This document shows positions 1,036-43,234 of a DNA stretch of 64,000 nt, one piece after another. A program made the position numbers and the translations under genes. The notes below the pieces were generated by a model. The model saw only the letters and a program-made list of their open reading frames with translations, was not told the DNA's origin and did not search any database. Every line of letters starts with the position of its first letter. The stretch's first letter is position 1. The stretch is from Patescibacteria group bacterium (GTDB taxonomy: Bacteria; Patescibacteriota; Patescibacteriia; Veblenbacterales; UBA10138): NCBI GenBank assembly GCA_041645215.1, contig JBAZQK010000001.1:118091-182090 (forward strand). The letters are read 5' to 3'.

Positions 1036-1399
1036 AGAATTATGAATCAAGAATTAGGAATTAAGAATAATACAGCAAAGATAAAAACATTTACCGACTT
1101 ATTGGCTTGGCAAGAAGGACATAAATTGGTTCTGATGATTTATAAGATAACTACTGATTTTCCTAAGACAGAGCTATTTGCTCTAGTGGATCAATTAGTG
1201 GCTTAATAAAAAAATCAAAAACTATTCGTGATTCTTACCCAGTATAACTACTTGTGTTTCAGCTCGCTTTTAAAATAAAATTTATAAACCAGCTAAGTAA
1301 CTTATTCAATCGTTATCTTTTATTAATTACTTAATCTAAGCTCGCTAAATTTTATTTAACAAAGTAGTTATACTGGGCTTAATTCATAATTCTTAATTC
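1036..1399. repeat. Composite repeat: inverted AGAATTATGAATYAAG/heptamer ends (1036-1068 and 1378-1399) bracketing the four-helix fragment and a CCCAGTATAACTACTTG...CAAGTAGTTATACTGGG inverted-repeat hairpin (1238-1377)
   Basis: Read directly: 17-bp inverted repeat CCCAGTATAACTACTTG / CAAAGTAGTTATACTGGG; heptamers CTTAATTC ATAATTC TTAATTC at 1378-1399 are the reverse complement of 1041-1068. Confidence 0.55.
1042..1206 (+). pseudogene. N-terminal fragment of a four-helix-bundle protein (23S rRNA IVS protein family), truncated after ~55 codons
   Basis: MNQELGIKNNTAKIKTFTDLLAWQEGHKLVLMIYKITTDFPKTELFALVDQLV matches N-terminus of family (cf. intact copies at 2106 and 6746); premature stop; overlaps VirB4-like gene tail. 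Confidence 0.5.
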
Positions 1400-1408
1400 T
1401 TTCTAGTT

Positions 1409-2026
1409 GTGTCTCGTAAATTAATCATCATTCTTAGTGCAACAGCTAGCGTGTTACTGCTCGGTTTAGCAACGGGGTACTTTATTTGGTTTAGGAATCA
1501 ACCGCCGCCGGTTAATGCTAATCAGCCAGCTGACAATAGTCAAAACAATGTTACCGTGAATAATGGCAATGTGGCGCCGGTTAACAACGATGTGCCCTTG
1601 GGTTATCAAGGCTCGGGTGCGGCACCCGGTAGCGAGACCGATGATGATTCGCAAATTAGGTTAGTGGCTAAGAGTTTTGTGGAAAAATACGGCACTTTTT
1701 CAACCGATGTTAATTATGCCAATCTGGAGGGCCTTAAGTATTTATTAACTGACAGTATGAAGGCGGACATTAATAAAAGTGTGGCGGCCGGGCAATCTAA
1801 TCAGACTGGTTCTGTGTCTTTTTATGGCGTTACCACTAAGGCGTTGGTGACAAAAATAATTAATCAGGATTCAGGCCAAGGCGAAGTATTTTTAACCACT
1901 CAGCGCAGTGAAGTTTTTAGTCGTACTGCTACGCCGATTTTGCGGTATCAGGATATTAAAGTTGGTTTGTCAAAAGTCAATGGTCAATGGTTGGTTAACG
2001 AGGTGGAGTGGATTAAAGGGGAATAG
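1409..2026 (+). CDS. Membrane-anchored hypothetical protein (N-terminal TM helix, Pro/Asn-rich linker, globular C-terminal domain); possibly VirB8-like
   Basis: GTG start immediately after heptamer block; TM segment LIIILSATASVLLLGLATGYFIWF; no recognised catalytic motifs. Confidence 0.4.
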   Translation: MSRKLIIILSATASVLLLGLATGYFIWFRNQPPPVNANQPADNSQNNVTVNNGNVAPVNNDVPLGYQGSGAAPGSETDDDSQIRLVAKSFVEKYGTFSTDVNYANLEGLKYLLTDSMKADINKSVAAGQSNQTGSVSFYGVTTKALVTKIINQDSGQGEVFLTTQRSEVFSRTATPILRYQDIKVGLSKVNGQWLVNEVEWIKGE

Positions 2027-2105
2027 GAAACACTTAACCACTTTATCACTGGAACACTTTAACATTTATGGGAAATGATAACTAATTCAAAATTAAAAAA
2101 TCAAA

Positions 2106-2477
2106 ATGGAAAATGACAAATTAAAATTTAAAAATGAATTTAAGAAAAGGCTATATTCTTTTGTACTGAAATTAATTAAATTTATTGATTCTCTGCCTAA
2201 AGGGGTTGTTAGTGAGGTAATGGGTAAGCAATTATTACGCAGTGGCACTAGTATATTAGCCAATTATGTAGAAGCCAACTCAGCTAGTTCTAAGAAAGAT
2301 TTTATTAACTTTTTCACTCATTCTTTAAAATCAGCTAATGAATCAAAAGTTTGGTTAGCACTTTTAAAGGATACTAATAAAGGCAACAAACAAGAATTAG
2401 GCCGCCTTTTGGTGGAACTAATAGAATTGTCTAACATTTTAGCCTCTAGTATTTTAACTCTTAAAAATAAGAAATAA
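2106..2477 (+). CDS. Four-helix-bundle protein (23S rRNA intervening-sequence protein family)
   Basis: Family signature LLRSGTSILANYVEANSASSKKDFINFFTHSLKSANESKVWLALLKD, ~120 aa. Confidence 0.8.
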   Translation: MENDKLKFKNEFKKRLYSFVLKLIKFIDSLPKGVVSEVMGKQLLRSGTSILANYVEANSASSKKDFINFFTHSLKSANESKVWLALLKDTNKGNKQELGRLLVELIELSNILASSILTLKNKK

Positions 2478-2565
2478 TTTTGCATTTTTAATTGTCCCGC
2501 TTTGCGGGATCTCGCAAAGCGATGATAATTTTGATTTTTGATATTTACATTTTACATTTCCCATT

Positions 2566-2961
2566 ATGGCACCCAACGACCAAGCCCAAGATTATGAATC
2601 CGAGTTAGCCGCGGCGAGGCAACAGGAAAGGTTGCAGCAAATGCAAGCGGAGCAAGAGGCGCAAAAACCCAGTCGTTTACAGCGGCTGAAGGGTAATGTT
2701 GCGCAGTTAGCTAAACAGCAGGCGAAAAATATGGCTAAGCAGGCCGCTAAACAAGTTGCCAAGCAAGCTATAAGACCGGTGGCTATTTGGGTGGCAACTG
2801 GAATAGCAGCTCTTTTAGGCAATCCGATTACTTGGTTTGTTTCATTCGCGCTGCTTATCATCGTTTTTGGCTACTGGTGCGTTCAGCCGGCAACTAATAT
2901 CCCTAATTGCGCTGGGATAGTAGGTTGGGGCATTGTTGATATATTTAAGGTTGTTTTTTAG
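2566..2961 (+). CDS. Hypothetical membrane protein, Gln/Ala/Lys-rich coiled N-terminus and C-terminal TM hairpin
   Basis: Low-complexity QQAKNMAKQAAKQVAKQA then TM helices AIWVATGIAALLG / FVSFALLIIVFGYWC. Confidence 0.4.
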   Translation: MAPNDQAQDYESELAAARQQERLQQMQAEQEAQKPSRLQRLKGNVAQLAKQQAKNMAKQAAKQVAKQAIRPVAIWVATGIAALLGNPITWFVSFALLIIVFGYWCVQPATNIPNCAGIVGWGIVDIFKVVF

Positions 2962-3069
2962 TTTAATTTGTATGGATAAGTGTTGTATTTTGGGAAATTG
3001 TGAAATTGTGGTTTGATTAGTATTATTATAACGTGATTTTTTCAAAGGAATGTTAATTTATATATAAAA

Positions 3070-42762: not shown

Positions 42763-42766
42763 ACAC

Positions 42767-42794
42767 TTGACAGTTTGTAAAAACTTGCTAAAAT
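42767..42794 (+). promoter_or_regulatory. Sigma70-like promoter TTGACA-N16-TAAAAT for groES-groEL
   Basis: TTGACA 42767-42772; TAAAAT 42789-42794. Confidence 0.6.
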
Positions 42795-42798
42795 GCTA

Positions 42799-42825
42799 TT
42801 AGCACTCCATATCAGAGAGTGCTAA
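42799..42825 (+). promoter_or_regulatory. CIRCE operator (HrcA binding site)
   Basis: Exact consensus TTAGCACTC-N9-GAGTGCTAA. Confidence 0.9.
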
Positions 42826-42859
42826 TTTCTACTAAATTTATAATTAACTAAGCCAAAAT

Positions 42860-43150
42860 ATGAAATTAAAGCCATTAGGCGACCATTTAGTGGTCAAAGT
42901 CAATCAGGAGGATAAAACTACTAAGGGCGGCATATTATTGCCCGATACAGTAGATAAAGAAAAACAGGAGACCGGCGAAGTAATAGCGGTCGGCCCCGGT
43001 AAATTGATGGACAATGGTAATCGCGCCGCTATGGAAGTAAAAGTCGGCGATAAGATTTTGTTTAAAAAGTATGCCTTAGATGAGTTTAAATTAGACGATG
43101 AAGAATTCGGCACTTTACAACTCTCTGATGTAATTGCGATTGTTGAGTAA
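42860..43150 (+). CDS. groES: Co-chaperonin GroES
   Basis: 96 aa; KPLGDHLVVK...GGILLPDT...GEVIAVGPG. Confidence 0.9.
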   Translation: MKLKPLGDHLVVKVNQEDKTTKGGILLPDTVDKEKQETGEVIAVGPGKLMDNGNRAAMEVKVGDKILFKKYALDEFKLDDEEFGTLQLSDVIAIVE

Positions 43151-43164
43151 TTTCTAATTCTTGT

Positions 43165-43234
43165 CCAGTATAACTACTTATTTAACAAAGTTGTTATCAC
43201 TGGACTTAATTCATAATTCTTTATTCTTAATTCT
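43165..43234. repeat. Hairpin element TCCAGTATAACTACTT-atttaacaa-AGTTGTTATCACTGGA plus heptamers CTTAATTC ATAATTC TTTATTC TTAATTC inserted between groES and groEL
   Basis: Read directly; same family as 1238-1399. Confidence 0.6.

Follow-up and report, generated by a model that had tools for sequence, protein, structure and literature searches.

The hairpin repeats analysed here belong to a family of very small mobile DNA elements, apparently not described before, that occurs in many bacteria of the Candidate Phyla Radiation (CPR). Taken as a whole, the data are probably explained by a MITE-like family of the CPR whose main form sits at start codons in one polarity and is moved in trans. A literature search, by the exact end sequences and by subject, found no paper describing the element. 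Three members lie in a 64,000-nucleotide stretch of Patescibacteria DNA (the window, meaning that whole stretch) and share the terminal inverted repeat CCCAGTAWWWCWACTT: c1 (1238-1377), c2 (20967-21107) and c3 (43164-43204). A sequence-only reading of the window had picked out three elements with common terminal inverted repeats; all three are present, with the limits of c1 and c2 as first given and those of c3 off by one base. The elements and their flanks are as follows.

1234..1237, no strand assigned: left target-site duplication of c1, CTTA, the same letters as 1378-1381.
1238..1377, no strand assigned: c1, intact, 140 bp, variant subfamily, with CCCAGTATAACTACTT at both ends.
1378..1381, no strand assigned: right target-site duplication of c1, CTTA, also the start of the heptamer array at 1378-1401.
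1378..1401, plus strand: heptamer array right of c1, CTTAATTCATAATTCTTAATTC.
20963..20966, plus strand: left target-site duplication of c2, TATG; one TATG only is present in the empty site of relative L116.
20967..21107, plus strand: c2, intact, 141 bp, canonical, its left end being the A end CCCAGTAATACAACTT and its right end, towards murI, the B end AAGTTGATATACTGGG.
21108..21111, plus strand: right target-site duplication of c2, TATG, whose ATG (21109-21111) is the murI start codon.
43151..43235, plus strand: NTAATTC heptamer array of the groES-groEL spacer, an insertion target, interrupted by c3.
43160..43163, no strand assigned: left target-site duplication of c3, CTTG, which differs from CTTA at a single position.
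43164..43204, no strand assigned: c3, a 41-bp remnant with the interior deleted, a c1-type left end fused to a c1-type right end.
43205..43208, no strand assigned: right target-site duplication of c3, CTTA.

The arms of c1 (CCCAGTATAACTACTT and AAGTAGTTATACTGGG) pair perfectly at 16 of 16 positions, those of c2 (CCCAGTAATACAACTT and AAGTTGATATACTGGG) continue to pair further inward, and c3 retains TCCAGTATAACTACTT and AAGTTGTTATCACTGGA. Copies related to c1 were found at L172-L174 and L014, and c2 is 84% identical to a Kerfeldbacteria copy (L013:246-398). The distances to the following start codons are as originally read, namely 1 nt for c2 (murI ATG at 21109), 31 nt for c1 (GTG at 1409) and 41 nt for c3 (groEL ATG at 43246). 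The murI start is backed by the N-terminus MIGLFDSGIGG, common to the homologues P0002, P0003 and P0009; no database record identical to the MurI protein of the window was found, and in a near-identical strain gene callers had called murI 14 codons short. The flanking 4-bp direct repeats and the NTAATTC arrays at c1 and c3 had been overlooked in the sequence-only reading, as had the descent of c3 from a c1-type copy by loss of the interior, and the difference between the two ends of c2.

The end motif is more frequent in the window than expected by chance. With up to three mismatches, CCAGTATAACTACTT matched 11 times against 1.62 expected, a count reached in 0 of 100 shuffles, and a degenerate 16-mer matched 15 times against 6.5 expected; paired arms occurred only at the c1, c2 and c3 loci. 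Folding of each copy, proposed earlier as a check, gave -33.0, -46.6 and -14.1 kcal/mol for c1, c2 and c3, far better than shuffled sequences (z-scores of -5.8, -6.5 and -4.7, respectively). The opposite strands fold equally well, so the folding stems from the palindromic nature of the DNA and is not peculiar to a single transcript.

Comparison with relatives revealed both occupied and empty sites. At murI, an element is present in the window and in L115 and absent from L116 and L117: the empty site of L116 reads TAAgTATGattgg, with one TATG, and in L117 murI overlaps glmM at ATGA. The groES-groEL spacer, of which both genes were confirmed by Pfam, carries a full-length 144-bp copy in L122/L123 at the place of c3 and no element in L118, in L121 or in L119/L120, where the heptamer array is uninterrupted (GTAATTCTTAATTCATAATTT). 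The insertion of c3 at this junction, already noted in the sequence-only reading, is lacking in close relatives, and the suggested spacer comparison showed both presence and absence. L094 was also considered as a relative for the c1 site and proved too distant to use.

These observations bear on the reading of the hairpins as immobile, host-encoded regulatory RNA structures of 5' UTRs, conserved for their function; RNase III sites would be one such structure, and a thermosensor, for instance that of groEL, another. Such a reading would fit the strong and significant folding, the covariation of the stem described below, and the position of copies in 5' UTRs or between cistrons, one of them before the heat-shock gene groEL. 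It is contradicted by the target duplications and the empty orthologous sites, by the lack of the groES-groEL copy in relatives (L118, L119/L120, L121) with GroES identities of 86-89%, by interiors that are unrelated between lineages, by the same ends preceding dozens of unrelated genes, and by the equal folding of both DNA strands. Rfam gave only tRNAs at gathering scores in the window, and permissive scans of c1 and c2 produced only noise-level matches. A dedicated RNA regulator, the thermosensor or similar device first suggested, is largely refuted as the primary identity of the elements and is in our judgement very unlikely.

We extended the search across genomes with a two-arm pattern that required near-perfect ends. 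The terminal motif was found at no fewer than 103 loci, with at least 110 copies, in about 40 Patescibacteria assemblies; the hosts of the matches listed are all CPR MAGs or MAGs with doubtful labels. Among the matches listed, 105 copies could be oriented by their A and B ends. Full-length copies measure 126-159 bp (mode 140) and are non-coding, with AT-rich interiors rich in stop codons and unrelated between lineages, and right flanks are distinct in 104 of the 105. In viral contigs, three 16-mers gave 8, 25 and 21 single-end matches, none with a partner arm, and the recurrent ones examined (e.g. L140) fall in coding sequence.

Perfect 4-bp direct repeats flank 74 of the 105 oriented copies among the matches listed, most often TATG (48) and ATGA (12), with TATA, CCTA, TCAA, AGAG and TGTG also represented. 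The family combines several features by which bacterial MITEs are recognised: short non-coding sequence (below some 500 bp), terminal inverted repeats, a duplication of fixed length, many dispersed copies at non-homologous sites and precise empty sites. Together, these results strongly support reading the three window elements as MITE-like mobile elements and not as a gene-specific regulator. The earlier suggestion of MITE remnants is strongly supported as to the MITE by the repeats, duplications, empty sites and more than 100 copies; c3 alone is a remnant, c1 and c2 being intact.

Placement directly against start codons, first noted for the three window elements, proved to be what chiefly characterises the family at large. 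Copies of the main subfamily, such as c2 at murI, occupy (T)ATG(A) at genuine start codons, their B end against the gene, and the 4-bp duplication regenerates the ATG, so the ORF stays intact. An ATG lies 0-1 nt past the B end in 84 of the 105 oriented copies among the matches listed; an offset of 2 never occurs, and offsets of 3-16 are represented by single copies only. When these ATGs could be tested, 76 of 81 opened an ORF of at least 60 codons, compared with 27.6% for random TATG. The downstream proteins have canonical N-termini (S12, L17, L20, S16, S3, RecA, MreB, GatB, LigA and others), and the genes include rpsL, rplQ, recA and mreB. Of the 21 copies without an abutting ATG, at least 12 sit 3-40 nt upstream of a start codon, again with the B end geneward. 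Only one copy at a start codon is reversed (L037, among the matches listed). TATG agrees with a palindromic YATR consensus, and about one third of non-coding TATG sites are start codons; judged on sequence, enzyme targeting and selection do not appear cleanly separable as causes of the placement. Translational coupling through a short ORF from the left ATG was considered and rejected: frames entering the copies from that ATG stop after 3-50 codons, and the stops are scattered without length periodicity.

Exact placement and polarity would also be explained if the elements were mobile expression cassettes under positive selection, with the B end, read outward as TTGATATACTGGG, supplying some initiation signal, for example an extended -10-like promoter (TGnTATACT), by which the abutting ORF is driven or its expression made possible. 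The geneward B end of all start-codon copies but one and the narrow range of ATG offsets are in keeping with this, as are the absence of the TATACT hexamer from the A end and the essential, highly expressed nature of the genes behind the copies, which must stay expressed. However, only 3-4 nt separate the end of TATACT from the A of the ATG, which by established sigma-70 geometry (CPR rules may differ) would place the start of transcription inside or after the codon. A -35 element 16-18 nt upstream of TATACT, or any other conserved interior signal, is missing, and numerous copies are internal to operons, where they follow the upstream stop codon by a few nt. Scans of c1, c2 and c3 for sigma-70 promoters and terminators gave nothing convincing, although the consensus used may not be that of the CPR. 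We regard selection for a carried expression signal as quite unlikely.

A variant subfamily with CCCAGTATAACTACTT ends uses a different target. Its members sit at CTTA within NTAATTC heptamer arrays, just upstream of genes, and include the intact c1 and the internally deleted c3. Besides the array to its right, c1 is preceded on the left by a degenerate heptamer, GTGATTCTTA. Three further copies with variant ends on both sides (type II/II) were found, all inside heptamer arrays, with flanks of CTTA/CTTA in L172 and L173 and CTTA/CTTG in L174.

The ends of the oriented copies pair as a 20-bp terminal inverted repeat with complementarity of at least 97% at 17 positions and a fixed mismatch at the other three. 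There is essentially no variation at base pairs 1-7 and 11-16, which is partly a matter of ascertainment, since the search pattern demanded near-perfect ends. Base pairs 8-10 form a fixed 3x3 mismatch, and because of this constant mismatch the two ends differ, A being CCCAGTAATACAACTT and B CCCAGTATATCAACTT. The helix from 11 to 20 is 99.3% paired and pairing ends at bp 21. Within it, bp 17-20 covary: these four pairs show 2-4 pair types each, the observed covariation score was reached in 0 of 500 shuffles, and the 16 different tetramers are complementary in every case. Tetramers that vary and always match are hard to square with a transposase that simply recognises double-stranded DNA; they hint that a single strand folds as an intermediate or that selection acts on RNA. 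Some subfamilies have perfectly symmetric ends without the bubble, namely c1 and, in Wolfebacteria, L020 and L067. In L048 and L106, non-identical copies with a common TATG stand in tandem arrays, which speaks for independent repeated insertion into one site, and more arrays occur in L013 and L069.

This anatomy raises the alternative that the elements are mobile but not cut-and-paste MITEs, the 20-bp stem with its 3x3 bubble being recognised as a folded single strand by a structure-specific recombinase or an HUH-type enzyme, as for integron attC sites or palindromic elements derived from IS200/IS605. Movement of a folded strand would account for strand and orientation specificity. The covarying bp 17-20 and the abrupt end of pairing at bp 21 argue for it, together with a conserved asymmetric bubble that tells the two strands apart, the near-absolute polarity of the copies, same-site reinsertion yielding tandem arrays, and the lack of a DDE transposase in the window or the loci searched. 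Nevertheless, perfect 4-bp repeats of unrelated sequences are a signature of staggered cleavage and are unexpected for attC- or HUH-type recombination; the GTTRRRY core is absent, no integrase or HUH gene was seen beside the copies, and the bubble-free symmetric ends do not fit. GC skew at the copies was positive in only 69 cases, negative in 14 and ambiguous in 11, a bias that is confounded with gene direction; a link between orientation and replication was dropped on that account. We consider this alternative unlikely.

For the MITE-like family, we propose that copies would be moved in trans by an enzyme whose cuts are staggered by 4 bp; the simplest candidate would be a transposase of the DDE type with its gene elsewhere. 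DDE targets mostly lack orientation, being palindromic; here, the enzyme may recognise the asymmetric TATG in a single direction, or survival may be restricted to insertions whose B end is geneward. The elements would then be transcribed within a 5' leader or intercistronic RNA, and the 20-bp stem may fold the insert aside or be processed, so that the essential genes behind would still be translated. There may also be an RNA-level effect, such as putative RNase III processing of the stem, which could explain why genes tolerate the insertion. No transposase was found among the roughly 50 ORFs of the window. Nor did about 720 kb of loci yield an autonomous partner between end pairs 200-4000 bp apart with at most three mismatches: all such pairs were separate MITEs or chance matches, including a 1434-bp 'pair' in L106 that encloses the r-protein genes rplC and rplD between separate copies. 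Among 686 ORFs, only housekeeping families recurred. A bolder reading, which we put forward tentatively, takes the stem as the functional unit, on account of which a CPR-wide element would be tolerated before essential genes (rpsL, rplQ, recA, groEL): a structure-specific enzyme would insert the folded strand at start codons in one polarity, and the stem in the mRNA would be processed or bypassed and the regenerated AUG used.

Much of bacterial diversity belongs to the CPR, whose genomes are tiny and are considered poor in mobile elements. A MITE family placed exactly on core-gene start codons across many of their lineages represents an unusual transposon target choice, and it raises the question of how translation or transcription starts with a 140-nt hairpin directly before the AUG. 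On the practical side, the repeats fragment MAG assemblies and can mislead gene callers, as at murI, and CPR DNA is conveniently marked by their invariant 16-mers. A TATG-specific, orientation-specific integrase, if the enzyme behind the insertions were found, could interest biotechnology. Should the stem indeed be the functional unit, a transposon would here combine site specificity with harmlessness in a novel manner, and the element would possibly be a mobile expression signal for a huge, poorly understood radiation.

Several known systems invite comparison. Correia elements (CREE/NEMIS) are Neisseria MITEs of about 100-155 bp that lie near gene starts and are co-transcribed with their neighbours; they duplicate TA and carry 26-bp repeats together with an IHF site, promoter boxes can be provided by their ends, and RNase III cleaves the hairpins in their RNA. 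Like them, the CPR family is non-coding and abundant, with terminal inverted repeats, short target duplications and a position mostly near gene starts, but its duplication is 4 bp long, its 20-bp stem contains a fixed bubble, and its sequence is not similar to theirs. To our knowledge, Correia elements are confined to Neisseria, do not lie exactly on start codons and have no single fixed polarity. With integron attC sites and Vibrio cholerae repeats (about 60-140 bp) the family shares an imperfect palindrome, two conserved paired boxes split by unpaired bases, a variable centre, strand asymmetry and a position directly upstream of the next ORF. attC sites have a RYYYAAC/GTTRRRY core, make no target duplication and flank cassette genes beside an integrase, whereas the CPR copies have CCCAGTA...TACTGGG ends, 4-bp duplications and housekeeping genes as flanks. 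IS200/IS605-derived palindromic elements and REP/RAYT systems are likewise small and non-autonomous, with orientation-specific insertion by a specific tetranucleotide. They carry separate subterminal hairpins and a fixed flanking tetranucleotide without target duplication; in the CPR family the ends pair together, and matching direct repeats of variable sequence lie on both sides. IS1380-like elements have CC ends and a 4-5 bp duplication, and the CPR family agrees with them only in the CC termini and the 4-bp duplication. Finally, as in putative mobile or MITE-borne promoters, one short sequence stands before many non-homologous genes, its spread being ascribed to mobile elements, but promoter activity is putative in the CPR family, where the spacing to the ATG speaks against it. 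We know of no previous description of an exact start-codon junction combined with such polarity in elements of this kind.

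Three inverted-repeat elements were confirmed in the window: c2, of the canonical type, at murI, and c1 and c3, which have variant ends. A 4-bp direct repeat accompanies each of them.

1238-1377: c1, perfect 16-bp arms CCCAGTATAACTACTT / AAGTAGTTATACTGGG
1234-1237 and 1378-1381: direct repeat of c1, CTTA/CTTA
20967-21107: c2, arms CCCAGTAATACAACTT / AAGTTGATATACTGGG, with complementarity extending inward
20963-20966 and 21108-21111: direct repeat of c2, TATG/TATG
43164-43204: c3 in its best placement, 41 bp
43160-43163 and 43205-43208: direct repeat of c3, CTTG/CTTA

The terminal motif matched 11 times in the window (at most 3 mismatches) against 1.6 expected, a count as high as this occurring in none of 100 shuffles, and a degenerate 16-mer form of it matched 15 times against 6.5 expected; paired arms were present only at the c1, c2 and c3 loci. 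The sequence-only reading had placed c3 at 43165-43205; the element stands, but 43164-43204 is the better placement. c3 consists of a c1-type left end joined straight to the final ~25 nt of a c1-type right end (TTATTTAACAAAGTnGTTAT...) and is therefore an internal deletion. This deletion, the direct repeats and the heptamer arrays at c1 and c3 are additions to that reading. Folding of each copy, which it had proposed as a check, was significant (z-scores of -5.8 for c1, -6.5 for c2 and -4.7 for c3). The opposite strands fold just as strongly, as expected for palindromic DNA, so folding is a property of the palindrome.

By Pfam, c2 lies between glmM and murI and c3 between groES and groEL, while the upstream neighbours of c1 are a TraG-like gene and a truncated ORF resembling the 23S-rRNA intervening-sequence protein. 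Three genes for such four-helix-bundle proteins occur in the first 7 kb (976-1206, 2106-2477 and 6746-7126), adjoining TraG-like and T4SS-pilin-like genes; the first is truncated, as its match spans just positions 2-35 of the 106-position profile and it ends 31 nt short of c1. No transposase or integrase gene is encoded in the window, and its elements matched no Rfam family. The right TATG of c2 supplies the murI ATG at 21109. For murI (21109-21888), the product recorded in a near-identical ENA assembly (P0001) has 245 aa, its N-terminus being 14 aa shorter, and no record of the exact 259-aa product was found; apparently the true ATG, which abuts c2, was passed over in gene calling. Over its full length c2 is 84% identical to a Kerfeldbacteria copy and is thus an ordinary family member. 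A Kerfeldbacteria MAG encodes a MurI with 88% identity to the window protein, so the source organism is, judged by sequence, most likely Kerfeldbacteria-like.

The genome-wide search that had been suggested for the terminal motif, a scan of one representative genome per species with the pattern CCCAGTAWWWCWACTT-N(90-120)-AAGTWGWWWTACTGGG, returned at least 103 further loci, from about 40 assemblies among the matches listed. Their labels, among these same matches, include Doudna-, Kerfeld-, Terry-, Azam-, Wolfe-, Lipton-, Portnoy-, Magasanik- and Curtissbacteria, 'Patescibacteria group' and 'Saccharibacteria'. Nine loci carry Gammaproteobacteria labels (L026, L038, L053, L061, L080, L085, L087, L088, L101) and two come from Pseudomonadota-labelled MAGs (L064, L109). 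Since clusters at 90% or more group L087 proteins with those of Magasanikbacteria and L085 proteins with those of Patescibacteria, the Gammaproteobacteria labels of these two are probably wrong. The listed loci hold at least 110 elements of 126-159 bp (mode 140), and 105 of the 110 listed share the same asymmetry, with an A end CCCAGTAATACAACTT and a B end CCCAGTATATCAACTT.

Perfect 4-bp direct repeats flank 74 of the 105 oriented copies listed. TATG (48) and ATGA (12) predominate, alongside TATA, CCTA, AATG, TGTG, CATG, TATT, TCAA, AGAG, CTTG and TGTA; since the repeats vary in sequence, they are true target duplications and not element sequence. Where the two differ, TATG is on the right and the left usually departs from it by one base, which fits decay of a left repeat that is no longer needed. 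Right flanks are distinct in 104 of the 105 listed copies. The murI site is empty in L116 (MurI 84% identical), where a single TATG lies at the junction ...TAAgTATGattggtttatttgac; in L117 (68%) glmM and murI overlap at ATGA, and in L115 (88%) the same TATG is followed by A-end-like sequence. At groES-groEL, the spacer is element-free in L121 (GroES 89%; 16 nt) and L118 (88%; 44 nt), and in L119/L120 (86%) it holds an uninterrupted heptamer array, GTAATTCTTAATTCATAATTT. In the Kerfeldbacteria loci L122/L123 (83%) the spacer holds a copy that is full-length (144 bp) and flanked by an ATTA duplication, and its right flank matches that of the window. An 86-aa GIY-YIG domain ORF (L122 894-1154) lies directly upstream of groES there and is not at that position in the window. 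Absence from relatives had been named as the outcome favouring a MITE over a regulatory element; the empty sites therefore favour mobility. We consider it likely that c1-c3 belong to a family of mobile MITE-like elements with 4-bp duplications. Of the two interpretations previously offered, the MITE is upheld by duplications and empty sites, and the dedicated RNA regulator is not.

Among the copies listed, an ATG begins 0 or 1 nt past the B end in 84 of 105, and 76 of 81 testable ATGs start ORFs that run for 60 codons or more, compared with 27.6% for random TATGs of the same loci. The downstream products are real and have their canonical N-termini; they include S12 (MPTI.QLIR), L20 (MPRVKRG), L17 (MRHRK), S16, S3, GAPDH, MetK, GatB, MreB, RuvA, FtsA, acetate kinase, LigA, RecA and SecG, among others. 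One copy sits on a GTG start with a TGTG duplication. Of the 21 copies with no abutting ATG, 12 or more are nevertheless found 3-40 nt ahead of a start codon, their B end facing the gene, and a single listed copy (L037) has reversed polarity at a start codon. Copies precede rpsL three times (L028, L035, L084), rplQ four times (L051, L063, L105, L107) and a secG-like gene three times (L031, L059, L081), in distant lineages; these are either old insertions held in common or hot spots that were hit repeatedly.

Both TATG and its complement CATA match the palindromic YATR consensus, and the ratio TATG:CATA:TATA:CATG is 48:1:2:1 among the copies listed. With a crude gene mask, 723 kb of loci contain about 337 free start-codon TATGs versus about 691 other non-coding TATG/CATA sites, so sequence preference plus lethality of coding insertions predicts roughly a third at start codons. 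Among TATG-flanked copies about 95% are at start codons, so one unusual feature or more is required. The insertion machinery may recognise an asymmetric target in a single orientation, in keeping with the conserved A/B end difference. Alternatively, insertions may survive only when their B end abuts a gene, in which case the B end matters for expression. L106 (6040-7700) has copies, one very short, at the rplW and rplC start codons within the S10 operon, and arrays of two to three non-identical tandem copies spaced by CATA alone (TATG on the gene strand). Such copies sharing TATG also occur in L048, with more arrays in L013 and L069, and show repeated independent insertion into one 4-bp site, which random insertion followed by selection cannot produce.

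In the 105 listed copies, bp 1-7 and 11-16 are invariant, partly an effect of the search pattern, and positions 8-10 are never complementary (A.A, T.T, A.A). Complementarity is 97-99% at bp 17-20 and breaks down at bp 21; each of bp 17-20 shows 2-4 pair types, and 16 different tetramers occur. Helix 11-20 is 99.3% paired, four pairs having changes on both sides; its covariation score is 0.233, where shuffles give 0.071 and none of 500 reaches it, and lies far above slid controls. Interiors compared between lineages gave no alignable sequence and no position-specific signal. A protein that reads each end as duplex DNA would hardly account for sixteen complementary tetramers, which suggest that end-to-end pairing is itself required, whether in RNA or in an intermediate of single-stranded DNA. 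They thus keep alive, as a rival, a structure-specific mechanism acting on the paired ends, against which the variable 4-bp duplications point to staggered cleavage.

About 30 of 81 listed copies are intercistronic, within 0-30 nt of a preceding co-directional ORF, the remainder having larger gaps. A complete sigma-70 promoter, coupling through a consistent ORF begun at the left ATG, and in-frame read-through were each tested and gained no support. The B end carries TGATATACT, an extended -10-like motif absent from the A end; only 3-4 nt separate this motif from the ATG, less than E. coli rules would allow. Plausibly, the stem could fold the insert out, joining the upstream leader with the regenerated AUG; phage T4 genes 25 and 38, with their split ribosome-binding sites, are a precedent. 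The bubble-containing stem might equally plausibly be cleaved by an RNase III-type enzyme, as happens in Correia elements and at phage T7 processing sites. Our confidence in any one transposition or expression mechanism is low.

c1 and c3 each interrupt a tandem NTAATTC array. Such arrays (3-5 units) number 17 at no more than 3 mismatches against 0.6 expected.

1035-1071, minus strand: heptamer array
1378-1401, plus strand: heptamer array
43151-43235, plus strand: heptamer array
45956-45991, plus strand: heptamer array
63399-63427, plus strand: heptamer array
L119/L120 1498-1524, L034, L065, L100 and L172-L174: heptamer arrays elsewhere

A start codon, such as that of groEL or of PEP synthase, usually follows 5-25 nt after their end, and they also occur without an inverted-repeat element, as at 45956-45991 before the PEP synthase gene. 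A metagenome scan with GTATAACTACTT-N(95-125)-AAGTWGWTATACTGGG gave five more variant copies. Those with variant ends on both sides (c1, L172-L174) all lie within NTAATTC arrays and have the duplication CTTA, with CTTG on one side in L174. In hybrids, which combine a variant left end with a normal B end, the next ATG follows after 12-41 nt, and the duplications are TTTA (L170), TTTG (L171), CTTA/TTTA (L014) and ATTA (L122). The eight copies in all no more than suggest that a change of ends accompanies a target change from YATR-like to NTTR-like, which would be consistent with a distinct cognate enzyme. The variant subfamily inserts into the arrays, which might be AU-rich leaders or protein-binding repeats. 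A reverse-oriented array (42048-42083), identical in strains L001 and L002, lies in frame within the Wzy_C (O-antigen ligase-like) ORF 41380-42762, reads RIKNYELRIKN and looks like a repeat insertion tolerated in coding sequence. At ~42209 in this ORF, strain L001 (99.4% identical) has an extra in-frame 27-nt palindromic insert GCCCCGCATAATAAATATACGGGGCAA (L001:231-257) at the centre of a local inverted repeat, ATATGTCCG|GCCGGACATAT.

A second, unrelated intergenic inverted-repeat family (10666-10800 and 56673-56851; ends ATAGGACTTACGCGTTTG ... CAAACGCGTRAGTCCTAT; inter-arm distances 97 and 133 nt) is probably another MITE family; a sequence in a different CPR MAG (L113:1039-1135) shows 78% similarity to the copy at 56673-56851. 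Strong local palindromes at 5042-5074 and 44922-44965, ATTCCTCAGCCCTCCT/AGGAGGGCTGAGGAAT and one just past the groEL stop, look like ordinary terminator hairpins unrelated to the family.

The CPR element matched no Rfam family, and a literature search of incomplete coverage found no paper with its end sequences or such a CPR element, so an earlier description may exist. The family lacks the defining features of attC sites, of IS200/IS605-type elements and of Correia elements. It shows every testable hallmark of bacterial MITEs except an identified autonomous partner, and we class it as a MITE set apart by its start-codon junctions, fixed polarity and covarying bubble stem.
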